Shown: positions 1 through 38,748 of the stretch, piece after piece
Position numbering within the stretch: position 1 is the first letter of the stretch
How the letters are laid out: the number at the start of each line of letters is the position of its first letter
IMG/VR virus record: IMGVR_UViG_2534682158_000014
Source: a virus
Lineage: Duplodnaviria; Heunggongvirae; Uroviricota; Caudoviricetes
Direction: 5' to 3' (one strand)
Length of the DNA stretch: 38,748 nucleotides
Translations under genes and position numbers: made by a program
Notes under the pieces: generated by a model
The model's input: only the letters and a program-made list of their open reading frames with translations
What the model was told of the DNA's origin: nothing
Databases searched by the model: none

Positions 1-846
<846 letters not shown>

Positions 847-5593: not shown

Positions 5594-6535
5594 ATGAGCA
5601 CTAAATTAACCGGCTATGTATGGGATGGTTGCGCTGCGTCAGGCATGAAGTTATCCAGCGTGGCAATTATGGCCCGCCTGGCTGATTTCAGTAATGACGA
5701 AGGTGTGTGCTGGCCATCAATTGAAACCATTGCCCGCCAGATTGGCGCGGGGATGAGTACCGTCAGAACGGCTATCGCACGACTGGAAGCAGAAGGCTGG
5801 TTAACGCGTAAGGCGCGTCGCCAGGGTAACCGCAATGCGTCGAATGTTTATCAGCTTAACGTTGCGAAGCTTCAGGCAGCGGCATTTTCTCAACTGTCAG
5901 ATTCTGACCCGTCAAAATCTGACGCATCAAAATCTGACCCGTCAAAATTTGATGCGTCGAAATCTGGCAAAAAAGCGGGTTTTCACCCGTCAGAATCTGG
6001 CGGGGATCCGTCAGTAAAATCAAAACATGATCCGTCAGATAAAAAACCTTCTCGTCCGGACGCTTCGCAACCGGACACGCAGACGGCTGAACAGAATTTT
6101 TTAACTCGCCATCCTGATGCGGTTGTATTCAGCCCTAAAAAGCGCCAGTGGGGAACGCAGGATGATTTGACCTGCGCACAGTGGCTCTGGAAAAAAATCA
6201 TCGCCCTGTACGAGCAGGCCGCCGAATTTGACGGCGAGGCGGTACGTCCGAAAGAACCGAACTGGACAGCCTGGGCAAATGAAATTCGCCTGATGTGTGT
6301 ACAGGACGGTCGTACCCACAAACAAATCTGCGAGATGTACAACCGTGTCAGCCGCGACCCGTTCTGGTGCCGTAACGTGCTCAGCCCGTCGAAGCTGCGG
6401 GAAAAATGGGATGAACTTTCCCTGCGCTTATCGCCGTCCGTCAGCACGTACACAGAAAAACGCGAAGACCCGTACTTCAAAGCCAGTTACGACAATGTGG
6501 ACTACAGCCAGATCCCGGCAGGATTCAGGGGGTGA
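5594..6535 (+). CDS. Replication initiator (lambda O-like architecture: N-terminal winged-helix, repeat linker, C-terminal domain)
   Basis: N-terminal 'LSSVAIMARLADFSNDEGVCWPSIETIARQIGAGMSTVRTAIARLEAEGWL' is typical of phage replication-initiator HTH domains. Tandem DNA repeats lie inside the gene, encoding 'SDPSKSDASKSDPSKFDASKS'. Confidence 0.7.
   Translation: MSTKLTGYVWDGCAASGMKLSSVAIMARLADFSNDEGVCWPSIETIARQIGAGMSTVRTAIARLEAEGWLTRKARRQGNRNASNVYQLNVAKLQAAAFSQLSDSDPSKSDASKSDPSKFDASKSGKKAGFHPSESGGDPSVKSKHDPSDKKPSRPDASQPDTQTAEQNFLTRHPDAVVFSPKKRQWGTQDDLTCAQWLWKKIIALYEQAAEFDGEAVRPKEPNWTAWANEIRLMCVQDGRTHKQICEMYNRVSRDPFWCRNVLSPSKLREKWDELSLRLSPSVSTYTEKREDPYFKASYDNVDYSQIPAGFRG
5897..6046. repeat. 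Tandem ~15-bp iteron-like repeats inside the initiator gene (candidate ori)
   Basis: 'ccgtcaaaatctgac' / 'gcatcaaaatctgac' / 'ccgtcaaaatttgat' / 'gcgtcgaaatctgg' / 'ccgtcagaatctgg', and further 'ccgtcag...' copies to about 6046. Confidence 0.6.
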
Positions 6536-6537
6536 TC

Positions 6538-7020
6538 ATGAGCCTTTTGAATGACGTTCAGAAATTCATTGAAGCCCATCCGGGGTGTACTTCCGGAGAC
6601 ATTGCGGATGCTTTTGCAGGTTACTCACGGCAGCGAGTTCTGCAGTCAGCAAGCAAGTTACGTCAGAGTGGGCGTGTGGCTCACCGTTGTGAAGAGGATA
6701 CACGCAGACATTTCCCGCGCCAGGCTGAGATATCGCAGGAGCCGGAACCAGTTTGTGAAACCAGACCTGTGCGCAATTTCTATGTCGGCACTAACGACCC
6801 CCGGGTGATTTTGTGCCTGACCCGCCAGGCTGAAGAACTGGAGTCCAGGGGCTTATTCCGTCGAGCTGCAACGGTGTGGATGGAGGCATTCCGTGAAAGC
6901 CACTCCCAGCCAGAACGAAACAATTTTCTGGCGCGTCGTGAGCGGTGCTTACGGAAAAGCAGCAAGCGCGCTGCATCGGGTGAAGAGTGGTATCTGTCAG
7001 GGAATTACGTGGGGGCTTAA
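6538..7020 (+). CDS. Hypothetical protein, 160 aa, Arg-rich C-terminus
   Basis: ATG at 6538 directly after the initiator stop. No domain recognised with confidence. Confidence 0.45.
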   Translation: MSLLNDVQKFIEAHPGCTSGDIADAFAGYSRQRVLQSASKLRQSGRVAHRCEEDTRRHFPRQAEISQEPEPVCETRPVRNFYVGTNDPRVILCLTRQAEELESRGLFRRAATVWMEAFRESHSQPERNNFLARRERCLRKSSKRAASGEEWYLSGNYVGA

Positions 7021-7346
7021 TGACGACGTTAACTCAATGCCAGCAGCAGGTGCTGGATATGCTGATTTCTTACCAGAAAGAACGTGGCTTCCCGCCAACC
7101 AATCAGGAGGTGGCTACCATGCTGGGATACCGTTCAGTGAATGCAGCGGTGGAGCATCTTCGCGCACTGGAGAAAAAAGGCGTCATCACGATAAAGCGTG
7201 GCGTGGCCCGGGGCATCACGCTTCATACCGCGGTGAAGGACGACGATAGCGAGGCGGCCGGGATTATCCGCGCACTGCTTGCTGGTGAGGAAAACGCCAG
7301 GCCGCGTGCAGCCCACTGGTTACATGAGAGGGGGCTGAAAGTATGA
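7020..7346 (+). CDS. Standalone LexA-type N-terminal DNA-binding domain protein, 108 aa
   Basis: 'QQQVLDMLISYQKERGFPPTNQEVATMLGYRSVNAAVEHLRALEKKGVI' resembles the LexA winged-HTH domain. No S24 peptidase domain follows. Confidence 0.55.
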   Translation: MTTLTQCQQQVLDMLISYQKERGFPPTNQEVATMLGYRSVNAAVEHLRALEKKGVITIKRGVARGITLHTAVKDDDSEAAGIIRALLAGEENARPRAAHWLHERGLKV

Positions 7347-7732
7347 AGCTGATTCTGCCTTTTCCACCCAGCGTGAACACCTACTGGCGACACCCCAACA
7401 AAGGGGCATTTGCTGGTAAGAGCCTGATAAGCGCGGCGGGGCGAAAATTCCAGAGTGCGGCGTGCACAGCAATAGTTGAGCAGTTACGTCGTCTGCCGAA
7501 ACCAACGTCGGCACCTGCTTCAGTGGAGATCGTGTTGTTTCCTCCGGATAACCGGATCCGCGATCTGGACAACTATAACAAGGCGCTGTTTGACGCCCTG
7601 ACCCACGCGGGTGTGTGGGAAGACGACAGCCAGGTGAAAAGAATGCTGGTTGAGTGGGGACCGGTTATCCCGAAAGGGAAGGTCGAGATCACTATCAGTA
7701 AGTACGAGAAAACGGCGGGTGCAGCCGCCTGA
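7343..7732 (+). CDS. rusA: RusA Holliday-junction resolvase
   Basis: 'LPFPPSVNTYWRH...' start and the 'RIRDLDNYNKALFDALTHAGVWEDDSQV' acidic catalytic region typical of RusA. Confidence 0.85.
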   Translation: MKLILPFPPSVNTYWRHPNKGAFAGKSLISAAGRKFQSAACTAIVEQLRRLPKPTSAPASVEIVLFPPDNRIRDLDNYNKALFDALTHAGVWEDDSQVKRMLVEWGPVIPKGKVEITISKYEKTAGAAA

Positions 7733-7751
7733 TCAAGAGGAGAAACGAAGT

Positions 7752-8561
7752 ATGAATAATCTGATGGTCATTGATGGTATTGAAGTTCGTCGTGATGCTT
7801 ATGGGCGTTACAGCCTGAACGATCTGCATCGCGCAGCAGTAGCATCTGGTGCAAATGCCAGAACCAAGGAGCCAGGAAAGTTTCTTTCCAGCCAACAAAC
7901 TGTTGAGCTTGTTCATGAATTGATCAACACCCAGAATTTGGGTGTTGACCCGGTGAGTGTGATTCATGGGGGAAATGAACGGGGAACGTATGTCTGTAAG
8001 GAACTGGTGTATGCCTATGCAATGTGGATCAGCCCGTCATTCCATCTGAAGGTGATCCGTACTTTCGACATGGTAACCAGCGCACCGGAAAAATTATCCG
8101 GACAGGCTGCTGACAAGATGCAGGCTGGAGTGATTCTGCTGGACTTTATGCGTCGGGAGTTAAACCTGTCTAACTCATCTGTGCTTGGAGCCTGTCAGAA
8201 ACTCCAGGAGGCTGTTGGCTTACCGAATCTGGCACCGCGCTATGCCATTGATGCTCCTGCTGATGCACACGATGGCTCAAGTCGCCCCACGCTGTCGCTG
8301 AGTGCACTGCTGAAGCAGTATGGTATCCGCCTGACGGCTAATCAGGCATATCACCAGATGGTGAAGCTGGGGATCGTTGAACAACGCGAACGATACAGCC
8401 GTACCGCGATTAACAACATCAAAAAATTCTGGTCGCTGACAGCGAAAGGCTGCATGTTCGGCAAGAACATCACCAGTCCCGCAAATCCGCGCGAGACGCA
8501 GCCGCATTTCTTCGAATCCCGATTCCCTGAGCTGTTAAAGCTGCTCGATACCGTTCATTGA
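7752..8561 (+). CDS. KilA-N domain protein
   Basis: N-terminal 'MVIDGIEVRRDAYGRYSLNDLHRAAVASG' is KilA-N/APSES-type. Start at the internal ATG preceded by 'AGAGGAG'. Confidence 0.65.
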   Translation: MNNLMVIDGIEVRRDAYGRYSLNDLHRAAVASGANARTKEPGKFLSSQQTVELVHELINTQNLGVDPVSVIHGGNERGTYVCKELVYAYAMWISPSFHLKVIRTFDMVTSAPEKLSGQAADKMQAGVILLDFMRRELNLSNSSVLGACQKLQEAVGLPNLAPRYAIDAPADAHDGSSRPTLSLSALLKQYGIRLTANQAYHQMVKLGIVEQRERYSRTAINNIKKFWSLTAKGCMFGKNITSPANPRETQPHFFESRFPELLKLLDTVH

Positions 8562-8562
8562 G

Positions 8563-9558
8563 GTGACCGTGAGAGCACTACTGACCCCTGAAATTGCCCC
8601 GCGTATGGGGATCGTATTGTTCAGACCAGGTTCAGAGCTGATGCCCCTGTTTATGCAGGGGCGTGTCCTGCTGGAGCCTGAGCCGGAACGTTATTCATCT
8701 TTCGCCAGTGGTGCCGTTCCGGCAGCATCACAACCGCTGGCGGATGATCCTGCCGTTCGGGCCGTGTTCCGCAATGAGGCAGTGATCCGTCGTGCTGGTG
8801 GAGTGGAATGTCTTGAAAGCTGGTTACTTCGTGAAAAAGGCTGCCAGTGGCCTCATTCCGACTGGCACAGCGAGAACATGACCACAATGCGACACGCGCC
8901 GGGCGCAATCCGTCTGTGCTGGCACTGCGATAACCAGCTGCGCGATCAGTTCACGGAACGGCTGGAATCAATGGCAACGGATAACTGTGCTCGCTGGGTG
9001 TTGTCTGTCGTGCGTCGGGATCTCGGTTTTGATGATAGTCACGTTGTGACAATGCCGGAACTGTGCTGGTGGCTGGTTCGTAATGACCTGGCGGATGCCT
9101 TACCGGAAAGTGCAGCCCGTAAGGCTCTGAGATTACCGAAGCCTGTTGTGCCGTCTGTCACCCGGGAAAGTGACCTTGTGCCTTTGGTTCCTGCCACCAG
9201 CATCATCCAGGATAAAGCGAAAAAGGTGCTGGCGCTGAAAGTGGATCCGGAGTCGCCGGAGTCTTTTATGTTACGCCCGAAACGTCGCCGCTGGGTTAAT
9301 GAAAAGTACACGCGCTGGGTTAAGACGCAGCCGTGCGCATGTTGTGGAAAGCCTGCTGATGATCCCCACCACCTGATAGGCCACGGTCAGGGTGGAATGG
9401 GTACAAAAGCGCATGACCTCTTTGTGTTGCCTTTGTGCAGAAAGCATCACGACGAGCTGCATGCGGATACCGTGGCATTTGAAGAGAAGTATGGCTCCCA
9501 GCTGGAGCTGATATTTCGTTTTATCGATCGTGCGCTGGCAATTGGCGTACTGGCCTGA
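8563..9558 (+). CDS. DUF968-family protein (nin-region type, Cys/His-rich C-terminus)
   Basis: C-terminal 'CACCGKPADDPHHLIGHGQGGMGTKAHDLFVLPLCRKHHDELH'. GTG start is uncertain. Confidence 0.55.
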   Translation: MTVRALLTPEIAPRMGIVLFRPGSELMPLFMQGRVLLEPEPERYSSFASGAVPAASQPLADDPAVRAVFRNEAVIRRAGGVECLESWLLREKGCQWPHSDWHSENMTTMRHAPGAIRLCWHCDNQLRDQFTERLESMATDNCARWVLSVVRRDLGFDDSHVVTMPELCWWLVRNDLADALPESAARKALRLPKPVVPSVTRESDLVPLVPATSIIQDKAKKVLALKVDPESPESFMLRPKRRRWVNEKYTRWVKTQPCACCGKPADDPHHLIGHGQGGMGTKAHDLFVLPLCRKHHDELHADTVAFEEKYGSQLELIFRFIDRALAIGVLA

Positions 9559-9575
9559 TTTTGTGGAGAAAGGTG

Positions 9576-9941
9576 ATGCGTGATATTCAGATGATACTTG
9601 AACGTTGGGGAGCATGGGCTGCGAGTGATAACTCTGGTGTTGATTATTCACCTATAGCTGCTGGGTTTAAGGGACTTCTTCCCTATACCAGCAAGAAACG
9701 CTTGGCTTGTTCGGATAGTGATGCATTAATTATTGAAGGTTGTCTTGCTCGTCTAAAGCAAAAAAGACCTTATGAGCATTCGCTTCTTGTGGCACATTAT
9801 TTATACAGAATATCCAAGCGTAAGATTGCAAAGGCGCGTGGAAAGGATGAGAAATTGATACGTATAGAAATACAGCTAGCCGAAGGATTTATTGATGGCT
9901 GCCTTTCCATGCTAGATCTAACATTAGATTTGGACGTTTAA
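9576..9941 (+). CDS. Late-gene antiterminator Q-like protein
   Basis: Size, position immediately upstream of the late promoter/terminator and lysis genes, and sequence flavour of small Q-family proteins. ATG at 9576 is preceded by 'GGAGAAAGG'. Confidence 0.6.
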   Translation: MRDIQMILERWGAWAASDNSGVDYSPIAAGFKGLLPYTSKKRLACSDSDALIIEGCLARLKQKRPYEHSLLVAHYLYRISKRKIAKARGKDEKLIRIEIQLAEGFIDGCLSMLDLTLDLDV

Positions 9942-9944
9942 TAA

Positions 9945-9969
9945 AATACGCCCCATGCAGGGGCGTATT
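9945..9969. terminator. Bidirectional intrinsic terminator between Q (+) and the KAP NTPase gene (-)
   Basis: Perfect 10-bp stem 'aatacgcccc-atgca-ggggcgtatt', with A/T runs on both sides. Confidence 0.65.
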
Positions 9970-9971
9970 AT

Positions 9972-11303
9972 TTACTGAATGAATGACATTTGATTGATAT
10001 ATTTTATCAATAACTCTCTGGGTGTAGTACTACAAAAATTTAGGTGGTCATAATCAGTATAAACATTTGTGAATTTTTTAAGTTCTTCATCACTTTTAGG
10101 GGCAAATCGCGCATTAAGAGTAATGCTGTCTTTAATTATTCCGAAGAATACAATAGATATTTCAGGAATTTGCGTTCTTCTCTCATAAGAATAAGGTATT
10201 TCTTTTATGTTAAGCAGGTCTGCTAAATGAGATATAGATTCAGCGGTAATTTCTTGTTTTATTTTTTTCTTGTCACCAAAGCAATGTATGAAGACAGCTA
10301 CGACAAAGATCCTATTTATTAAAGGAGCACTGCTTTTGTACTCCTCGTCGTTTAACAGTTGAAAAATGTTAAGATTGCGTGAAAAAGTTTGTGTTTCACG
10401 TAAGGATAAGTTGGTTCGTTGAATTAAATCACGGATAAATCTACCAGATAAACTATTAATTTCATTTAGTGATTTTGTCTTGTCTACAAGGTAATTCCAA
10501 TATATAACAGATGTTTTACATACGACGTGACCTTTTATTAAACATGTGTCTGGAAGCGTGATGGTATATTTAATAAACTTGTCAAGATACTTTTGTGAGT
10601 TAATACTATAACCATAAATATGATTTATCGATGCTTTTAATTGTTCTGTGTTTGTAACTAAAATAAAAAAGACATTATTGATGTCAAAAATGTGTTTTAT
10701 TGTTTCAATGACATTTGTTGAAAAACTCGGCTTACATCGGTCTAATTCATCAATTATAATTACTATCTTTTGGTTTTCTGAAATACTTTCGATGCAAGAT
10801 TTAAGTGAATTTATGTTTTTCTCTGATTCCATATGGTCTTCAAGCAAATTTTCAATAGTCCCATCTATTGCTGCATTGCTTGCTTTCTTCATAGCATCTT
10901 GGAATTCTTCGGCAACTTCACTAGCCTCCTGTCGTAAAAACCAACCTGCACCAGCTTTTAGTACCGTTTTTAAACCAAATCGAATTGCAGGAAGGGATCT
11001 CTTAATGAAGTGTTGTTTTTCTTCCTCAGGCAAAATGCTAGCAATTGCAGAGGTTATGAGAAGTAATGGAGATTCTGCATGATCCCCTTTAAAGGCATCA
11101 ATATAAACAACTTTAGATTCGGTTTCTTGCTCAATAATGAGATTTTTCAGTTTGATACTAAATTCTGTTTTCCCTGTTCCCCATGCGCCGTCTATTACCA
11201 GTGGTGAAATGTCTGCCTCTGGTTTTAGCAACTTGATGATATTTTCAGCGATGTTTCTTCGTTGGAACTCGTCACGTTCAGTGAAAGATAGTGTATCTAA
11301 CAT
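9972..11303 (-). CDS. KAP-family P-loop NTPase, 443 aa, AT-rich accessory gene
   Basis: Walker A 'VIDGAWGTGKTEF' and Walker B 'IVIIIDELDRC'. Strongly AT-rich and oriented against the flanking late genes. Confidence 0.8.
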   Translation of the reverse strand: MLDTLSFTERDEFQRRNIAENIIKLLKPEADISPLVIDGAWGTGKTEFSIKLKNLIIEQETESKVVYIDAFKGDHAESPLLLITSAIASILPEEEKQHFIKRSLPAIRFGLKTVLKAGAGWFLRQEASEVAEEFQDAMKKASNAAIDGTIENLLEDHMESEKNINSLKSCIESISENQKIVIIIDELDRCKPSFSTNVIETIKHIFDINNVFFILVTNTEQLKASINHIYGYSINSQKYLDKFIKYTITLPDTCLIKGHVVCKTSVIYWNYLVDKTKSLNEINSLSGRFIRDLIQRTNLSLRETQTFSRNLNIFQLLNDEEYKSSAPLINRIFVVAVFIHCFGDKKKIKQEITAESISHLADLLNIKEIPYSYERRTQIPEISIVFFGIIKDSITLNARFAPKSDEELKKFTNVYTDYDHLNFCSTTPRELLIKYINQMSFIQ

Positions 11304-11428
11304 AATATAAACCTGTTAACTCCTACAGTAAAAAACGAATAATACGACTTTGGGATTAAAAATCATTAACGCGGTCCGCAAAAATTCTTGTAATCTGTTA
11401 AGAGTGGTTACTTCGCCACACAGCTTAA

Positions 11429-11456
11429 ACCCGCCGTCGAGCGGGTTTTGTCGTTT
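11429..11456 (+). terminator. tR'-like terminator of the late leader transcript (putative pR' just upstream)
   Basis: 'acccgc-cgtcga-gcgggt' followed by 'tttgtcgttt', about 150 nt upstream of the holin gene. Confidence 0.55.
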
Positions 11457-11600
11457 CTGTGGCTGGGGATTCGTTGGGCCTGGCCTATCCCGCAGTTATC
11501 CTTTGACTCGGCTTCTTTGACGTTTCCGCTTCTGATTTGCGGAACATGATGTTTCCTCAATTTGCACCTGCTGTATCAGCGAGGTGAGAGATAACTACAA

Positions 11601-11936
11601 ATGCCTCATAACCCAAATACCTGGCCGGACTGGCTGGAGTTGTTTCAGAGCTGGTGGCGTGGAGACACACCGCTGGGCGCAGTGATTATGTCGATCGTTA
11701 TGGCTGGCTTGCGCATTGCCTATTTTGGCGGTGGTGGTGGCTGGAAGCGAAAAACGCTCGAGATTTTGCTCTGTGGTGCTCTGACGCTGACATTTGCATC
11801 CGCTCTTGAGTATGTCGGATGGCCTAAATCACTTTCTGTTGCCATTGGTGGTGGTGTTGGGCTGATCGGTGTCGATGCTATTCGTGGGGCAGCAATGCGA
11901 GTAATCGGTAACAAATTTGGTAGCTCGAAGGAGTAA
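11601..11936 (+). CDS. Putative holin (three predicted TM segments)
   Basis: Three hydrophobic stretches and a charged C-terminus. Immediately precedes the endolysin. Confidence 0.6.
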   Translation: MPHNPNTWPDWLELFQSWWRGDTPLGAVIMSIVMAGLRIAYFGGGGGWKRKTLEILLCGALTLTFASALEYVGWPKSLSVAIGGGVGLIGVDAIRGAAMRVIGNKFGSSKE

Positions 11937-12961: not shown

Positions 12962-13522
12962 TTAAAGTACCCACCAGCGGATCGATTCCGTGGGTATGGT
13001 TGCAGCCTCGACTTGATGAACAATTCCCAACTCGGAGGCCCTTCCGGGATGAAGGATGGTTGCCGAAGTGATCAAATCCTTCCAATCAGCAATCTCACTT
13101 GGATTTTTCTTTTTTGTTTCAATATCCATGATTTGAATAAATCGATTTAGATCGTCATCGAGGCATGAAGCCCATTCTCTCAATCGTAGGTGATCTTCGC
13201 TGGGTGCGGCGAACCCCCAATGCAGTGGGTGAAGAAGGAAGCGAGAAAGTGGGTTGGCAGTTCGCACTTCTCCAGCCATATAGATCACGTTTGCGATTGA
13301 TTCAACATTACTGAGGTTATGCGTAGTAACCTTTACACCAAGTGACTTTAAAAAATTGTAAGCAGTAAAGCCTGAAACTGTATCTCCACCTTTGCTGGAA
13401 ATATAGAGCTTAATTTCTGTTGCTGGTTGATTAGTATTTGAAACTGCTTTTAAGCAGACATCCATCAGATTAGTTACAGAGGCAACTGTAACATCTGTCA
13501 AAAAATGTACCGTATGGATCAT
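12962..13522 (-). CDS. ClpP-fold (S14-like) serine peptidase homologue, 186 aa
   Basis: 'EIKLYISSKGGDTVSGFTAYNFLKSLGVKV...SNVESIANVIYMAGE...FLLHPLHWGF' aligns by eye to ClpP '[23 protein letters not shown]...GQAASMGAFLLTAG...MIHQPLGGY', with candidate Ser and His retained. Preceded by 'GAGGAG' on the minus strand. Confidence 0.55.
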   Translation of the reverse strand: MIHTVHFLTDVTVASVTNLMDVCLKAVSNTNQPATEIKLYISSKGGDTVSGFTAYNFLKSLGVKVTTHNLSNVESIANVIYMAGEVRTANPLSRFLLHPLHWGFAAPSEDHLRLREWASCLDDDLNRFIQIMDIETKKKNPSEIADWKDLITSATILHPGRASELGIVHQVEAATIPTESIRWWVL

Positions 13523-13600: not shown

Positions 13601-14149
13601 CTAGCTCTGTGGCGTGCTTAAGCATTTTGCTTCGTAATGTACCCTCATGGAAAACATAGCGAATAACATAATGAGCTTATCGCGTAAGCTTGTAGAGGAT
13701 CCCGTGAAACTTACAACCCTAGTTTCTGCTCCGTAAACCCCAAGCTTAAAATCTCTAATGGGGGTCAAGCTATCAGGGTAACCGTGCTCCATTAGACTTG
13801 TTAAGGAGTCAATCTCACTGTTAGTGATGTCAGAGTTGTTAATTTGATGTGAACGTTTGTTTCTGAAGTTGTTGAACCTTCGAATAAATTTGTTTAGCTC
13901 TGAGCTCATCCCATAGTTCATCGCAAGCTGAGCTTTAATGGCAAAATCCATGTTGATATTTTCGCCAAAACCGCTGAAGAAATCCCTGTTACCAGAGGCA
14001 CAGATAATCCAAGCTTCCAAGATTTGTTCAATCAAAAGGTGAGTGCGGAGATAGATACCAATGTCATCTTGGGACCGAACTATAGTCATTATTCTATCGG
14101 GTTGATGGGATGCTAAAGTCAACTCTTCAAAATGAGTAAAATCAAACAT
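13601..14149 (-). CDS. Hypothetical protein, 182 aa, with an R-x4-H motif (possible HEPN-like); first gene of the two-gene cassette
   Basis: 'FRNKRSHQ' fits R-x4-H. AT-rich. 'AAGGA' Shine-Dalgarno. No other recognisable domain. Confidence 0.5.
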   Translation of the reverse strand: MFDFTHFEELTLASHQPDRIMTIVRSQDDIGIYLRTHLLIEQILEAWIICASGNRDFFSGFGENINMDFAIKAQLAMNYGMSSELNKFIRRFNNFRNKRSHQINNSDITNSEIDSLTSLMEHGYPDSLTPIRDFKLGVYGAETRVVSFTGSSTSLRDKLIMLFAMFSMRVHYEAKCLSTPQS

Positions 14150-27407: not shown

Positions 27408-28736
27408 ATGACGTGGAAAGACAGACTTCAGGACGCGTCATTTCGCGGCGTGCCGTTTAAGGTTGAAGAAGAAAGTGCGGGAACCGGTCGTCGTGTGGAA
27501 ACGCACGAATACCCGAACCGCGACAAACCCTATACCGAAGACCTGGGGAAAATCACTTTCCGCCCGTCCATCACGGCTTATGTGGTGGGAGATGACTGCT
27601 TTGACCAGCGCGATCGCCTGATTGACGCGCTGAATAAACCCGGTCCCGGCACGCTTGTCCATCCGACTTACGGTGAGCTGAAAGTCTGTGTTGACGGAGA
27701 GGTTCGGGTCAGCACATCGAAGAGTGAAGGGCGTATTGTCCGCTTTGACCTGAAGTTTGTCGAAGCAGGAGAACTCTCTTACCCCACATCAGGTGCGGCG
27801 ACGGCGCAGACGCTGATGTCATCCTGTTCTGCACTGGATGACTGCATCAGTGACAGCTTCAGCGGTTTCAGTATCGATGGTGTGGCGGATTTCGTGCAGA
27901 ACGACGTTATCGGTAATGCCAGCATAATGCTGGGGTATGTTTCTGATGCGATGAAAGTGGTGGATTCTGCCGTATCGGATGCCGCCAGGCTGTTGCAGGG
28001 GGATATCTCGGTACTTCTGCCGCCGCCATCGTCAGGCAAAAATTTCGTTGAGCAGGTGCAGAAAATGTGGCGTACCGGGAAACGCCTTTATGGTAACGCC
28101 AGCGACCTGGTCACCATGATCAAAACGCTTTCCGGTGTCAGCCTCGGCAGCGATCTGCAACCGCGCGGCGTCTGGAAAACGGACAGTAAAACCACCGCCA
28201 CGGCGACGCAGCAGCGTAACGTGGTTGCCAGCACTCTTCGTACGACCGCAATCAGCGAAGCGGCGTATGCCGTTACCCGATTGCCTGCGCCAACAACTTT
28301 CGCGGTGATGCAGAATTCCGCAGTGGGGCAGACAACAACACCCGCGCAGAGCAGTGGCTGGCCTTCCGTCACGCATTCGGCACTGAACAATGCACCGGCG
28401 GTGAAAAACACGGTTGACCTGCCGACGTGGGAAGAACTGACTGACATTCGCGACATACTGAATACGGCAATTGATAAGGAGTTGTCCCGTACAACCAGCG
28501 ATGCGCTGTTTCTGGCGCTGCGCCGGGTGAAAGCAGATCTGAATGCGGATATCAACACGCGCCTTGAACAGTCTGCACGGATCATTCAGCGCACACCGGA
28601 TGAGGTTTTACCCGCGCTGGTGCTGGCGGCGACCTGGTTTGATAACGCGGCGCGTGACGCGGACATTATCCGGCGTAATGCCATTACGCATCCCGGCTTT
28701 GTGCCGGTGATCCCTCTGAAGGTGCCAGTGCAATGA
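27408..28736 (+). CDS. DNA circulation protein (Mu N-like)
   Basis: 'MTWKDRLQDASFRGVPFKVEEESAGTGRRVETHEYPNRDKPYTEDLG' is typical of Mu gpN-family proteins. ATG at 27408 preceded by 'CCGGAG'. Confidence 0.8.
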   Translation: MTWKDRLQDASFRGVPFKVEEESAGTGRRVETHEYPNRDKPYTEDLGKITFRPSITAYVVGDDCFDQRDRLIDALNKPGPGTLVHPTYGELKVCVDGEVRVSTSKSEGRIVRFDLKFVEAGELSYPTSGAATAQTLMSSCSALDDCISDSFSGFSIDGVADFVQNDVIGNASIMLGYVSDAMKVVDSAVSDAARLLQGDISVLLPPPSSGKNFVEQVQKMWRTGKRLYGNASDLVTMIKTLSGVSLGSDLQPRGVWKTDSKTTATATQQRNVVASTLRTTAISEAAYAVTRLPAPTTFAVMQNSAVGQTTTPAQSSGWPSVTHSALNNAPAVKNTVDLPTWEELTDIRDILNTAIDKELSRTTSDALFLALRRVKADLNADINTRLEQSARIIQRTPDEVLPALVLAATWFDNAARDADIIRRNAITHPGFVPVIPLKVPVQ

Positions 28737-32408: not shown

Positions 32409-33341
32409 ATGCATCGTATAGACACGAAAACCGCGCAGAAGGATAAGTTCGGCGCGGGTAAGAACGGTTTTACCCGTGGTAACCCCCAGACCGGCACACC
32501 TGCCACCGATCTGGATGATGACTACTTTGACATGTTGCAGGAAGAACTTTGTAGCGTGGTGGAGGCCTCCGGTGCCAGCCTGGAGAAGGAGCGGCACGAC
32601 CAGTTGCTTACCGCGCTTCGTGCGCTGCTGTTAAGCCGCAAGAATCCGTTTGGTGATATCAAATCGGATGGCACGGTGAAAACGGCTCTCGAAAACCTTG
32701 GTTTGGGAGATGGCTCGGGGCGTTACAGCAAAACTGTCGTTTTTTCATCGTCGGGTTCATATACGTGGCCAGCTGACGTAAAACGAATTGACGTTATTCT
32801 GACTGCGGGGGGCGGCGGTGGCGGTGGATGTAACGCGGAGAACGCAAATCAGACATTTTCAGGGGCTGGCGGAGGAGCCGGAGGTACTGTTTTTGCCACT
32901 ATTTATGCGACAGACAACGATGCCGGGCCAGGGACCTATACAGTGACAATTGGTAGCGGTGGTAGTGGTGCCAATGGGCCAGGGTCTGGAAATAATGGCG
33001 GTCATAGTTCGTTCATGACATTAACTGCGCTCGGCGGCCAGGGTGGGCAATGGGGCGGCGCTACAAATACCGCTGGCGGGCGCGGTGGCTCAGGCTCTGG
33101 CGGTTATAAAACTGAACAAGGCGGAGACGGTTCAGACGGACAGGCGGGCCAGGCGCTATTAGTAGGCAATGGGGCATCGAGCTATTGGGGTGGCGGCGGC
33201 CGCGCTGGGCAACTGAGCGGTAATCCTGGAGTTTGCTCTGGCTCCGGCGGCGGGGGTGCATACGATAATAGCTATTCACACACGTCAGGACGTGGCGGGC
33301 ACGGAGCTAATGGCGTGCTGGTAATTCGGGAGTACATGTAA
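32409..33341 (+). CDS. Tail fibre protein with a Gly-rich C-terminal region
   Basis: N-terminal '[46 protein letters not shown]' fibre-attachment domain. The C-terminal ~200 aa are dominated by GGxGG / GSG repeats. Confidence 0.7.
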
Positions 33342-33746
33342 ATGAATGATATCTATGCAGTTGTTGATAATAACGTTGTTATTAATGTCATTATCTGGGA
33401 CGGAATTTCTGAATGGAAACCAGAGGCTGGTAATTTAGTTCCGTTAAACGGCGATGCTGGCATCGGTTGGTCATATTCAGACGGAGTATTTACCGTGCCA
33501 CCTCCCCCAGAACGCTCTCACAACGCGTTAGTTGCGGAGGCTGAGCTGCAGAAATCAGCACTACTGACCGTAGCAAATAACGCAATAGCACCGCTGCAGG
33601 ATGCCGTTGATTTGGAAATGGTGACAGACGATGAACAGGCGTTACTGCTGGCGTGGAAAAAATACAGGGTACTGCTGAACCGTGTTGATACCTCAGCGGC
33701 ACCCGAAATAGAGTGGCCTACGCAACCGGGGGAGCGGGCCAGTTGA
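33342..33746 (+). CDS. Tail fibre assembly protein (Tfa)
   Basis: '[21 protein letters not shown]...' and the C-terminal '[11 protein letters not shown]' motif typical of Tfa proteins. Confidence 0.8.
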
Positions 33747-33867
33747 TATCAGGCGCAGCGTCAGCATCAACTGCTGTCACTGCGTCGATGTAGTCGAGTA
33801 CCGCATTCAGCCGCGTTTTTTCATCATCAGTCAGTTTGCGGCCTGCACTTCTCCGTTGACATCTTTG
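33721..33867 (-). pseudogene. Inverted C-terminal remnant of a second tail-fibre-assembly gene
   Basis: Minus-strand frame between stops reads '[49 protein letters not shown]' with no start codon. Its C-terminal motif parallels that of the + strand Tfa, and the two 3' ends overlap by about 26 nt. Confidence 0.5.
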
Positions 33868-34002: not shown

Positions 34003-34030
34003 GCGGGTGCTTAGCACCCGCTTATTTAAT
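34003..34030. terminator. Hairpin terminator between the tfa (+) and gtrC-like (-) genes
   Basis: 'gcgggtgc-tta-gcacccgc' followed by 'ttatttaatt'. Confidence 0.55.
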
Positions 34031-35496
34031 TAATTGCAGTTGAATGTAATGTTTTTATCGTAAACAAAAATCTTCTTATCTCCGACGTCAATAACCTTTG
34101 ATGGATTACCAATCTCTTTAATTGTTATATTTCTCATAACCTCGTCATCTGTAATTATGAAATTTCCTCCGCGCTCATACCAATAGTTTTTTGACAACCA
34201 TTTATTGCATGCAAGTATATTCAAACCTCGGTTTACATCAATCGGAGCAATTGATATGTCTCCATCTATACTTGCTGATGAAGCAAACCAGAAAGATGCA
34301 TACCCGTTTGTGAGGTTATTCTGCCTTACAGTGTGTTTTATCTGATTTATAATATCATTAGAATTGTCTTTTTTTTCATGCATATAAATAGAACAAAAGA
34401 GAATAAATGTTGTAACAACCCCTAATGCGATGAATTTCCACCCTCTGGAGTTGTTAGATCTGCCAATAACAACAGGTGCTAGTATAAAAAATGGAACGAT
34501 ATATCTTATAGTCCATTCATCTATTGGACGGTTACTTGCAAGGTATGCTGGTATCATTATAATACAAGCTATACATATAGCCATATTGATCATGGAGGTT
34601 TTGAATATTTCCTTTACTGACATTGCAACTAATATAAGAAGTAAAATCATTACAACAAAACAAAAAACAGAAATAAGCGCTGTAATATCAGAAGGTGGCT
34701 TGCCAAAGAAGAAAGCTCCACTGTATAGGAGGAATCCTTTTACGAATAAGTATAAATTATTCAGGATATCATCAAATGCAACAAATGTTGGATCTGGAAC
34801 GCCTGGCAAAATGTACCAGTTATGAGCTCTTGCGTACATGGTCATAATTTTTGATGCAACATATGCAAATATAGTTGCAACTAGTATGATCAGATTTTTT
34901 TGGCTTTTGGTTTTTACTATAAAAATCACTGATGATATTGCTACTGGTGCAATAATGAGTAGCTTTATGATGTCATCACTGAAACAAGCTAGAGCTAACA
35001 CTAAAATATAAAGAGATAGAGAAATTAACGATCTTGTTTTGGAAAAATTGTCTAACATTATGAAGCAAAACAACATGGATACATATGTGCCGACATGTAT
35101 CACAGGTATTAATACGTTTAATACTGCAAACCCAGAAGGCAGCGCAACGCAAAATGAAATGGCCCATAACGATGAAAGCCTTTCTTTTGAAAGATAAAAT
35201 GTCATCAATGTAACCATTGAATACATAATTGCCGGTATGCAGTATGCTTGGTACTGTCCGTACCAGAATACCTTTGAAGCAAGCCCGTACCATATTATGT
35301 CTGTAAAATAGAATGATACTGTAGAGAGATACCATCCACTAAGCGTCCAATTTCCGTCCGCAATGTCCTTACCCTCAAGAAGTCCAGAAACAGCATCCGA
35401 ACTTGGCAAAATCTGTTTTGAAATCGAGGCGTAGAAGAAAGTCAAGAATATAAATCCAATGATGTATATGGCTGTTTTTTTTATATTTAAAGTCAT
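34030..35496 (-). CDS. GtrC-type serotype-specific O-antigen glucosyltransferase (polytopic membrane protein)
   Basis: 488 aa, multiple TM segments, AT-rich, last gene of a gtrA–gtrB–gtrC arrangement. Confidence 0.6.
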   Translation of the reverse strand: MTLNIKKTAIYIIGFIFLTFFYASISKQILPSSDAVSGLLEGKDIADGNWTLSGWYLSTVSFYFTDIIWYGLASKVFWYGQYQAYCIPAIMYSMVTLMTFYLSKERLSSLWAISFCVALPSGFAVLNVLIPVIHVGTYVSMLFCFIMLDNFSKTRSLISLSLYILVLALACFSDDIIKLLIIAPVAISSVIFIVKTKSQKNLIILVATIFAYVASKIMTMYARAHNWYILPGVPDPTFVAFDDILNNLYLFVKGFLLYSGAFFFGKPPSDITALISVFCFVVMILLLILVAMSVKEIFKTSMINMAICIACIIMIPAYLASNRPIDEWTIRYIVPFFILAPVVIGRSNNSRGWKFIALGVVTTFILFCSIYMHEKKDNSNDIINQIKHTVRQNNLTNGYASFWFASSASIDGDISIAPIDVNRGLNILACNKWLSKNYWYERGGNFIITDDEVMRNITIKEIGNPSKVIDVGDKKIFVYDKNITFNCN

Positions 35497-35497
35497 T

Positions 35498-36412
35498 TTA
35501 CTTATCCTTTAGAATGTATCTTGGTCGCTGCTTAACTTCAACATAAATTCTTCCTATATACTCTCCAAGAACTCCTATGCCTATTAACTGAACTCCACCA
35601 AGAAACAATATTGATACAATGATAGAAGGGTAACCTGGAACACTATTTCCAAACATCAATTTATCAGCAATCATCCATGCTCCATAAAGGAATGATAAGG
35701 TTGCCACAAACAGGCCTATATAAGTCCACATGCGCAAAGGGAAAGTAGAAAAGCTAGTGATCCCTTCCAGCGCCAAGTTCCATAGCTTCCATCCATTGAA
35801 CTTTGTGCTTCCTGCAACTCGTTCTGCTCGCGCATATTCTACGACATCGGTTCGACCACCAACCCAGCTCAGCACACCCTTCATAAACAGGTTTCGTTCT
35901 GGCATGAGCTTAATGTTTTCTACTACTTCGCGAGACATGAGCCGGAAGTCGCCAACATTTTCTTCTATCTTAGGGTTGCTGATTTTGTTATGAAGCTTAT
36001 AGAACCACTCAGCAGATTTACGCTTCAGCCTGCTGTCAGTGGAGCGGTCAGAGCGTTTAGCCAGAACCATATCTGCACCGGCCTGCCATTTCTCTATCAA
36101 GTGAGGAATAACTTCGATAGGGTCTTGCAGATCAACGTCAATCGGGATAATTGCCTCCCCGGTAGCATGGTCCAGACCTGCGAACAGGGCGGGTTCTTTG
36201 CCGAAGTTACGTGTGAACGACAGCGAAACAACAAGCGGGTCGGCAACAGCAAGCTCGTTGATAATTGATTCTGTAGCGTCTTTGCTGCCATCGTTTATGA
36301 AGACTATCTCGACTTCATGCTGCTGAAGCCCTTCAAATTCGCGCACAGTTTTATAAAAAATAGGTATCGTGGCCTCTTCGTTAAAGACCGGAACGACTAA
36401 AGAAATTTTCAT
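35498..36412 (-). CDS. gtrB: GtrB bactoprenol glucosyltransferase (GT2 family)
   Basis: '[13 protein letters not shown]...IFINDGSKD' GT2 N-terminus, 'IDVDLQD' DxD region and two C-terminal TM helices. Confidence 0.9.
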
Positions 36413-36771
36413 TTCGCATCCCTAAAGACAATGAACTTTGAATAGACGAAACCGCACACCAGGCTGATGGCGGAGAAGGTGACAAGAGTTATCATCGGGG
36501 GAAGTGCGCATCTATCAGCAGCCCATCCAACAGTAGCACTGAGTGTTCCCATGAACCCGACATATAACATGTAGCGCATCGTTGTAGTTGATGCTTTGAA
36601 TGTGAATTTTGCATTCGCGAAGAAGCTAAAACTCACAGCCACAACGAAACCTGCGAAGTTTGCCAGAGCCTGATTGGTATGCGCGGCATAGATACATACA
36701 CCAAAAACCACCCAGTGTATAAGTGTGTTCAGCACACCAATCGAGGTGTACCTTGCAAATATATTTAACAT
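36409..36771 (-). CDS. gtrA: GtrA flippase (small four-TM protein)
   Basis: 120 aa hydrophobic protein immediately upstream of, and overlapping, gtrB. Confidence 0.8.
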
Positions 36772-36969
36772 TTATTTAATCAATGAGTTCTGAAAGGTAT
36801 GAAGTCTATCATCCAAGTCTCAATCGATCGATACTTGCGGTAGTTGATGAGGAAAACTCTGGTACACAAAGCTTTGCACTGGACTGCAAGGTGTTGTGCT
36901 TCTCTGGAGTGCGATATGTTTGATGACAAAAAATTAGCGCAAGAGGACAAAAAATCACCTTGCGCTAAT

Positions 36970-37129
36970 GCTCTGTCTCAGGTCACTAATACCATCTAAG
37001 TAGTTGATTCATAGTGACTGGATATGTTGTTTTTTGTAGTATCATGCAGTCTATTTTTTAGACTAAATGTATTTTAACACATTGATATTATTGGCTTTTG
37101 CTGTTTCGCGTTCAGCTTTTTTATACTAA
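36970..37129. other. Lambda-type attR: phage P-arm sequence plus 15-bp core 'GCTTTTTTATACTAA' (37115-37129), followed by bacterial B' flank
   Basis: The core is identical to the lambda att common core. Upstream 'caggtcactaataccatctaagtagttgattcatagtgactg' resembles the lambda attP P arm as I recall it. Downstream 'cttgagcgaaacgg' leads into ybhB. Confidence 0.8.
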
Positions 37130-37219
37130 CTTGAGCGAAACGGGAAGGTAAAAAGACAAAAAGTTGTTTTTAATACCTTTAAGTGATACCAGATGGCATA
37201 GCGCCATCTGGCAGAGTGA

Positions 37220-37696
37220 TTAACTAAACATCGCAGTAATCGAGGCGCTTGCCAGAGAATGGAAATGGACGTTAAACCCGACCATCGCGCCGCTGGCACC
37301 TTCATCGACATCAATACGTTCTACATCCAGCGCGTGAACGGTAAAAATGTAGCGATGGGTTTCGCCTTTCGGCGGCGCTGCACCATCGTACCCGGTTTTA
37401 CCAAAGTCGGTACGCGTCTGCAAAACGCCGTCTGGCATTGCTACCAGACCAGAGCCAAACCCTTGCGGTAATACGCGGGTATCAGCGGGTAAATTAACAA
37501 CTACCCAGTGCCACCAGCCGGAGCCGGTTGGCGCATCCGGGTCGTAGCAGGTGACAACAAAACTTTTCGTTCCCGCAGGAACATCATCCCACGCCAGATG
37601 CGGTGAAACATTATCGCCATCGTAACCCATGCCGTTAAAGACATGACGATGTGGCAACTTATCGCCATCGCGCAGATCATTACTGATGAGTTTCAT
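37220..37696 (-). CDS. ybhB: YbhB (PEBP/Raf-kinase-inhibitor-like family protein), host gene
   Basis: 'MKLISNDLRDGDKLPHRHVFNGMGYDGDN...YDPDAPTGSGWWHWVV' matches E. coli YbhB as I recall it. Confidence 0.9.
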   Translation of the reverse strand: MKLISNDLRDGDKLPHRHVFNGMGYDGDNVSPHLAWDDVPAGTKSFVVTCYDPDAPTGSGWWHWVVVNLPADTRVLPQGFGSGLVAMPDGVLQTRTDFGKTGYDGAAPPKGETHRYIFTVHALDVERIDVDEGASGAMVGFNVHFHSLASASITAMFS

Positions 37697-37754
37697 GAAC
37701 CCTCCTTTCTAGTTTGCAGAAAGTGTAGCCAGAAACCCTCACGCTGACTTCCCG

Positions 37755-38748
37755 TTATTGGCAAAAAAATGTTTCATCCTGCACCGCACGATTAACCGCT
37801 GCGGTCAGACGCTGCAACTGTTGCGGGAGAATAATATAGGGCGGCATCAGGTAAATCAGTTTGCCAAAAGGCCGGATCCAGACACCCTGTTCGACAAAGA
37901 ATTTTTGCAGCGCTGCCATATTCACCGGACGAGTGGTTTCGACCACGCCAATGGCCCCTAGCACGCGCACATCGGCAACCATTTTGGCATCACGGGCTGG
38001 TGCCAGTTGCTCGCGCAGTTGTACTTCAATAGCCACCACCTGCTGCTGCCAGTCGCCAGATTCGAGAATCGCCAGGCTGGCGTTTGCTGCCGCGCAGGCT
38101 AGCGGATTGCCCATAAAAGTTGGCCCATGCATAAAGCAACCGGCTTCGCCGTTACTGATGGTTTCCGCAACCTCGCGCGTGGTGAGTGTGGCGGAAAGGG
38201 TCATTGTACCGCCGGTTAAGGCTTTACCGAGGCACAAAATGTCCGGCGCGATATCTGCATGTTCACAGGCAAACAGTTTGCCAGTACGACCAAATCCGGT
38301 GGCGATCTCGTCGGCAATCAGCAAGATACCTTCGCGATCGCACATTTTGCGGATTCGTTTTAACCATTCCGGATGGTAGATGCGCATCCCGCCTGCGCCC
38401 TGGACAATCGGTTCAATGATCACCGCCGCGATTTCATGACGATGCGCCGCCATCAGGCGGGCAAAGCCCACCATATCGCGCTCATCCCATTCACCATCCA
38501 TGCGGCTTTGCGGGGCGGGAGCAAACAAGTTTTCTGGCAGATAGCCTTTCCACAGACTGTGCATTGAGTTATCCGGATCGCACACCGACATCGCGCCAAA
38601 GGTATCGCCATGATAACCATTGCGGAAGGTCAGAAAACGCTGGCGCGCTTCGCCTTTGGCTTGCCAGTACTGCAACGCCATTTTCATCGCCACTTCCACC
38701 GCTACGGAACCGGAGTCCGCGAGAAAAACGCATTCCAGCGGTTGCGGC
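37755..38748 (-). CDS. bioA: BioA adenosylmethionine-8-amino-7-oxononanoate aminotransferase, 5' end outside the window
   Basis: Class-III PLP aminotransferase sequence ending '...[13 protein letters not shown]'. Located beside ybhB as in E. coli. Confidence 0.95.

Follow-up and report, generated by a model that had tools for sequence, protein, structure and literature searches.

The window analysed here, a stretch of 38,748 nucleotides recovered as an IMG/VR virus record (IMGVR_UViG_2534682158_000014), runs at its right-hand end into bacterial DNA, and we conclude with high confidence, as the best explanation of the whole, that positions 36980–37133 represent the attR (P arm, common core and B') of a lambda-family prophage that Int-mediated recombination inserted into the E. 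coli attB between ybhC and ybhB. Judged by its sequence, the element is a prophage of about 43 kb that combines an SfV-like head, a Mu-like tail and a lambda-type int-xis-att cassette, with gtrC-gtrB-gtrA as its last genes before att. The junction is a textbook attR of the lambda family, carried by a known type of mosaic serotype-converting prophage, whose site, mechanism, cargo position and chimeric make-up have all been described already.

The attR junction beside ybhB

The 15-bp lambda core GCTTTTTTATACTAA is present without mismatch on the + strand at 37115–37129 and is single-copy across the 38.7-kb window, even with two mismatches tolerated (chance expectation 0.08). To its left the resemblance to lambda continues: window 36860–37133 aligns with lambda 27470–27742 at 87.2% identity (E 5e-94) with only one single-base gap, and this P-arm region is closer still to the attP regions of 434 (94.2%), HK106 (91.5–93%) and HK97 (91.2%). 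For all four phages the likeness stops at most 4 bp past the core. There lambda enters its P' arm (GTTGGCATTATAAAAAAGC...), whereas the letters that come next in the window, CTTGAGCGAAACGGGAAGG..., belong to what in E. coli K-12 MG1655 is the right flank of the empty attB; the window matches this flank at 196 of 200 bases before ybhB and bioA follow. As the phage arm lies on the left, the shared core in the middle and the bacterial arm on the right, the junction is of the POB' type; by lambda convention the junction on the bio side is attR, and we name it accordingly. The prophage right end can thereby be placed to the base. The interval 36772–37219 is the exact non-coding gap that separates the start codon of gtrA (36771) from the stop codon of ybhB (37220). 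An earlier note on this DNA had located the right prophage boundary at a lambda-type attR next to ybhB, had described a P-arm-like sequence before the core, to be checked by alignment to lambda attP, and had concluded that the element uses the lambda attB; the exact and unique core, the alignment and the K-12 flank bear out all three statements.

A chance likeness to the lambda core in an ordinary AT-rich intergenic region would be a trivial reading of the same site, and a 15-mer with at most two mismatches did indeed arise in 8 of 100 shuffled versions of the window. The core observed here is exact, however, extends into a 274-bp lambda alignment that breaks at the crossover point, borders the K-12 attB flank and has a partner site in related genomes (see below). 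The alignment, the flank and the partner attL together refute a chance match, to which we give practically no weight.

To map the protein-binding sites, an alignment of the window with attP from lambda, HK106, 434 and HK97 was made and the lambda sites were transferred, their definitions (P1, P2, H1, H2, X1, X2, Fis and C) being those of textbook lambda attP (Table 1). Core, overlap, C, P1, H1 and P2 are the same in the window and all four phages, while H2, X1, X2, Fis and tI/sib are conserved, and in the colinear alignment the predicted P-arm sites P1, P2, H1, H2, X1, X2 and Fis retain the lambda order and spacing. The stretch from X1 to H2 is only 73% identical to lambda (47/64) and 84–92% identical to 434, HK106 and HK97. 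Because the differences in X2, Fis and H2 recur in these three phages, and because overall identity to them is higher, the P arm reads as a common natural variant of the att family and not as the lambda laboratory sequence. Only three positions in 36924–37129 are unique to the window. Among them is 37031 within X1, which is invariant in lambda, 434, HK106, HK97 and E. coli strain 042 and is changed from G to T in the window; by its distribution this substitution is lineage-specific. The same T is found in seven genomes that are 100% identical over 36400–37250.

Table 1. Features of the prophage right end and the adjoining host DNA, in window coordinates
Feature	Position	Strand	Basis and remarks
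gtrC-type gene, serotype-specific O-antigen glucosyltransferase (predicted)	34030-35496	-	488 aa, multi-pass membrane; directly downstream of gtrB
gtrB, bactoprenol glucosyltransferase (glycosyltransferase family 2)	35498-36412	-	Pfam PF00535, E 2e-30; yfdH in relatives
gtrA, Und-P-glucose flippase	36409-36771	-	Pfam PF04138, E 2e-13
gtrA upstream region, Sf-type; presumed home of the gtr promoter	36772-36859	-	aligns to the SfV/HF4s gtrA-int intergenic region, not to lambda
Lambda b-region-like stretch beyond sib	36860-36925	.	57/64 vs lambda, 61/64 vs HK106
tI terminator / sib retroregulation hairpin	36926-36976	-	33/35 aligned positions as in lambda 27544-27577
Int arm site P1, predicted	36980-36990	+	identical in window, lambda, HK106, 434, HK97
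IHF site H1, predicted	36996-37010	+	identical in window, lambda, HK106, 434, HK97
Int arm site P2, predicted	37011-37020	+	identical in window, lambda, HK106, 434, HK97
Xis site X1, predicted	37023-37035	+	one change, G to T at 37031
Xis site X2, predicted	37043-37055	+	3 changes vs lambda, each common to 434 or HK97
Fis site, predicted	about 37049-37063	+	each lambda difference common to at least one of 434, HK106, HK97
IHF site H2, predicted	37075-37088	+	fits consensus YAANNNNTTGATW; lambda differences each in at least one of 434, HK106, HK97
Crossover region C-O-B'	37113-37133	+	exact lambda match to 37129, then exact K-12 attB
Core site C, CAGCTTT	37113-37119	+	identical in window, lambda, HK106, 434, HK97
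7-bp overlap, TTTATAC	37120-37126	+	identical in window, lambda, HK106, 434, HK97
B' site, TAACTTG	37127-37133	+	exact K-12 attB after 37129
Bacterial B' flank	37130-37219		hairpin downstream of ybhB (about 37190-37212) read from sequence; flank 196/200 vs MG1655 attB
ybhB, host gene	37220-37696	-	Pfam PBP family, E 2e-42; ybhB annotated in relatives
bioA, host gene, runs off the window end	37755-38748	-	annotation from colinear relatives and MG1655

On the far side of the P arm lies the tI/sib hairpin, which departs from lambda 27544–27577 by one substitution and one extra base and whose location the HK97 record labels “sib retroregulation site” and the 434 record “terminator”. The minus strand of 36850–36990 folds into a long interrupted hairpin at −44.5 kcal/mol (z −5.19), a stability equalled in none of 200 shuffles. 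A strict terminator scan missed tI, the hairpin of which has an internal loop, and an Rfam scan of 36300–37800 (E ≤ 1) returned a plant miRNA alone, a meaningless match of 23 bits against a gathering score of 87. Lambda sib/tI is no Rfam family.

Beyond sib the lambda-type sequence gives way to Sf-type sequence. The Sf-type likeness that comes from gtrB ends at 36876–36891 and the lambda/HK106 likeness begins at 36853–36860; their overlap is GCTTTGCACTGGACTGCAAGGT, a hairpin at 36871–36892 that a terminator scan picked out and that sits on the joint of the two modules. It may be a regulatory element, or else a recombination linker that allows cargo to be swapped beside att. In lambda the corresponding place holds a perfect TTGC-N6-TTGC, a box of the cII type; the record of phage 434 marks the matching stretch as cII binding sites, and SfV and HF4s share a weaker version.

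Partner attL in relatives, excision and the state of the prophage

The window itself contains no second core, no integrase and no xis. Searched as a whole against 5,426 complete E. coli genomes it found no 100% match, the best being 99.87%, and the genomes M7424 and M00057 are colinear with it without gaps at 99.86–99.87% identity (53 and 51 mismatches). In both, the core recurs in direct orientation 43,281 bp left of the attR core, between ybhC and the prophage, which puts attL 6.2 kb outside the left end of the window. The B arm of attL agrees with K-12 at 199 of 200 positions and its P' arm with lambda at all 250; beside it stand an integrase (353/356 vs lambda Int) and an excisionase (71/72 vs lambda Xis), each with a full-length frame, and the outer flanks of the two junctions, when joined, rebuild the empty K-12 attB. 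Relying on relatives of 99.87% identity, we infer that attL, int and xis are likewise present in the source genome. The earlier note had assigned integrase and excisionase to the attL end outside the window and had set a second core copy at the other prophage end beforehand as its test; neither lies within the window, and all of them turned up where expected in these nearly identical genomes. Across the 5,426 genomes, the gtrA-attR-ybhB junction occurs in 91 and the ybhC-attL-lambda-type int junction in 1,891 (about a third).

The differences between the window and M00057 are unevenly spread, with 36 of the 51 falling in 27701–28632, about 930 bp of a “DNA circularization” (Mu gp43-like) tail gene. 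The cluster resembles a recombination patch more than the outcome of point mutation.

The visible mosaic, which changes from Sf-type to lambda-type at about 36860–36891, and the IS elements inside the element might suggest that the att belongs to a separate lambda-like prophage lying beside or around an SfV-like gtr element, in a composite or tandem insertion. Yet between the two direct cores, over 43.3 kb in M00057 and 40.8 kb in strain 042, there is just one set of regulatory, lysis, packaging, head and tail genes, with one integrase and no further att-like core, and the same joint of gtrA and P arm recurs in 91 genomes, as fits a single mobile phage genome. On these grounds, the one gene set and one integrase per interval and the widely shared joint, a composite insertion was rejected as very improbable, and a single lambda-family prophage is retained in what follows.

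What the DNA shows directly is that attR is genuine and intact, that a partner site exists in relatives and which cargo genes are present; lambda biology suggests how such a junction would work. To excise the prophage, Int (on P2 and the C and B' core sites), Xis (on X1 and X2), Fis and IHF (on H2) would bend the attR P arm. Thus bent, attR could pair with attL (B-O-P'), and strand exchange across the 7-bp overlap would restore attP and attB. Integration in lambda separates sib from int. The tI/sib hairpin of this prophage would similarly be cut off from int, and because of this separation the early-left int-xis transcripts would lack the sib RNase III site, so that Int and Xis could be made after induction. 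After excision or upon infection, sib would again lie downstream of int and retroregulation would return.

Whether the prophage can still follow this course is a question of present activity, not of identity, and a true attR by descent that has become a fossil would be compatible with our best explanation. Such a prophage would be locked, with Int and Xis not expressible from the early-left operon and X1 binding weakened, a state that we consider plausible, though less likely than not. It is suggested by a cluster of about 3.5 kb of IS30, IS3 and ISEc31 sequence that, in all four of the closest genomes, stands between PAPS-reductase-xis-int and the remaining early-left genes; by the window start, which falls within an ISEc31 fragment, the neighbouring HD-hydrolase gene abutting the IS; by an annotated frameshifted early gene and an stfP pseudogene; and by the T in place of G at 37031, within an X1 site that does not vary otherwise. 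The int and xis frames, by contrast, are full length and 99% identical to those of lambda, attL and attR are otherwise intact, the packaging, head, tail and lysis genes are all annotated as intact, and another lambda-family Int and Xis in the cell could act in trans. The IS cluster probably blocks expression of Int and Xis after induction, and since it splits the early-left region and X1 carries the 37031 change, excision may be impaired. In structure, the cluster is an IS30 copy interrupted by IS3, plus an ISEc31 fragment (window 1–362; 8097–11667 in relative L002 and 5619–9368 in relative L003), and the HD-hydrolase gene borders on it with its 3' end.

The gtr cargo and other accessory genes

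The last prophage genes before att are gtrC, gtrB and gtrA, in the order typical of such operons, with GtrA, GtrB and a multi-pass GtrC. They occupy the same position and run in the same direction as the leftward b-region genes of lambda, and the description of gtrABC in the earlier note as att-proximal cargo in place of the lambda b region holds. At the DNA level gtrB-gtrA is 80–82% identical to SfV and HF4s, and identity to SfI, SfIV, SfV, SfII and HF4s rises to 88–91% over 36401–36891, a stretch that takes in the 3' end of gtrB, all of gtrA and some 120 bp upstream of it. The operon would be expected to glucosylate the O antigen of the host (lysogenic conversion).

GtrC matches nothing in Pfam or NCBIfam and, in PHROGs, only families of unknown function, and its subfamily is one without a curated model. 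A hydropathy scan detected 11 partly overlapping hydrophobic stretches, forming about seven distinct regions, in the first 375 aa. It aligns over its full length with GtrC of strain 042 (E 5e-81), and because identity is only 32%, its glucosylation specificity probably differs from that of the O44 GtrC.

In the prophage, tI has the same direction as gtrA and would shield gtrABC from host read-through out of ybhB and bioA; the operon would therefore need a promoter of its own, which should lie within roughly 150 bp upstream of gtrA (36772–36925). A strict sigma-70 scan of 36700–37260 found no promoter, and a relaxed scan upstream of gtrA gave weak candidates only, namely TTGAGA-18-TACCTT and TCGATC-17-TAGACT, the latter preceded by TG. 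The gtr operon of P22 is phase-variable through a Dam/OxyR switch at paired GATC sites. Paired sites of this kind were sought in the intergenic region and none was found, the single GATC being at 36826. This GATC overlaps the −35 element of the weak candidate TCGATC-17-TAGACT.

Transcription could take another route in the phage form. In lambda, the ea genes of the b region are expressed by antiterminated early-left read-through past tI. In the excised or infecting phage considered here, gtrA-gtrB-gtrC come directly downstream of int-attP-tI/sib and in the same direction, and on this basis one may speculate that antiterminated early-left transcripts read through tI into gtr. The O antigen would then change minutes after infection and before lysogeny, with RNase III at sib setting the level, until integration breaks the link and leaves only the weak promoter of the operon itself. 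We regard this as improbable.

Elsewhere in the window several genes lie against the direction of their neighbours. One of them, at 9972–11303 (-), encodes a KAP-family P-loop NTPase and runs opposite to the Q antiterminator gene and the lysis genes that flank it; it matches PDC-S20, a candidate defence system in PADLOC (E 1e-175), and, more weakly, PifA and QatA, and is probably a prophage-borne anti-phage gene. The space from the lysis genes to the terminase genes likewise has two genes on the opposite strand, a ClpP-like protease gene (12962–13522, -) and a hypothetical gene (13601–14149, -), neither of which had a match in PADLOC. At the tail-fibre end, the fibre and assembly genes, both intact, are followed by an inverted fragment of a tail-fibre-assembly gene (33718–33846, -), and the fibre ORF (32409–33746, +) has an annotated stfP pseudogene fragment at its 5' end. 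These fragments look like what is left of an invertible fibre segment that has lost its invertase.

Comparison with lambdoid and serotype-converting phages

What the window holds is an SfV-like serotype-converting phage with a lambda integration cassette. It brings no new biology, and the finding is of use for prophage annotation and for predicting glucosylation of the host O antigen; the points of modest note are details of the lineage, that is, the divergent GtrC and the signs of an IS-locked prophage.

Compared with the lambdoid phages that share its att, the element differs to the left of sib, where the window has the gtr operon, lambda has ea genes and HK97 and HK106 have tail-fibre genes. 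The body of the element belongs elsewhere. Over 14.7–32.7 kb (packaging, head and tail) its DNA is 97% identical to SfII, SfI, SfIV, SfV and vB_EcoM-689R6, and it combines an HK97-type head with a Mu-like contractile tail and baseplate module, whose baseplate genes have Pfam matches to Mu Gp45, GP46, Baseplate_J and Mu Gp48. The earlier note had called gtr together with a Mu-type tail an unusual combination. This does not stand, as it is the standard layout of SfV, SfII, SfI and SfIV, whose structural genes are the ones 97% identical to those of the window (PMC3636060). All glucosylating serotype-converting phages carry gtrABC immediately beside attP, followed by int and xis (PMC3636060, the SfI genome paper). 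SfV has the same order as the element, with a tail-fibre-assembly gene, the gene in the gtrC position (gtrV in SfV), gtrB, gtrA, att, int and xis. SfV, SfII, SfI and SfIV, however, integrate by means of a P22/DLP12-type integrase, and their 46-bp core is taken from the tRNA-thrW 3' end (PMC3636060), whereas the window element has the lambda cassette and attB, and the tRNA-like att core of SfV has no counterpart in the intergenic region of the window.

Besides its structural region, vB_EcoM-689R6 shares with the element the early and regulatory genes yfdP, yfdQ, an HD hydrolase, ymfL, yfdN, RusA and KilA-N (by annotation). Unlike the element, it integrates by icd with an e14-type integrase and is without gtr, and at the tail-fibre end, where the window has gtr, it carries a DNA invertase. 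Within the collection of phage records, none covers gtrA and the lambda P arm together, and no place covers at least 80% of the query.

The joint is found in the prophage 042p1 (ROD15) of enteroaggregative E. coli 042 (O44:H18), which occupies the same site between 15-bp direct repeats, has a lambda-type int/xis on the ybhC side and, like the window, combines an SfV-like structural module with gtrC-gtrB-gtrA as the last genes before attR. Across 36772–37219 the two differ at 3 of 448 positions. The 042 genome paper describes ROD15 / 042p1 at 877116..917926 with a “15bp direct repeat” and the cargo gtrAB and Ec042-0853 (PMC2808357); the distance from core to core in strain 042 is 40,826 bp, and the published coordinates sit exactly between the 15-bp repeats. 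The genes for the glucose side-branch of O44 have been placed in a prophage between ybhB and ybhC, where lambda normally inserts (PMC10304059; PMC7685785, citing Wang et al. 2007), and the GtrC of strain 042 has been assigned to this side-branch (PMC10304059). Apart from its distant GtrC, 042p1 differs from the element in being without the IS cluster and in its early half, which is lambda/P22-like with N, recT, kil and cII, whereas that of the window is of the yfdP/yfdQ/ymfL type. Relative to the Sf phages, it is the integration module (int/xis/att) that differs, and a chimera of this kind is already published.
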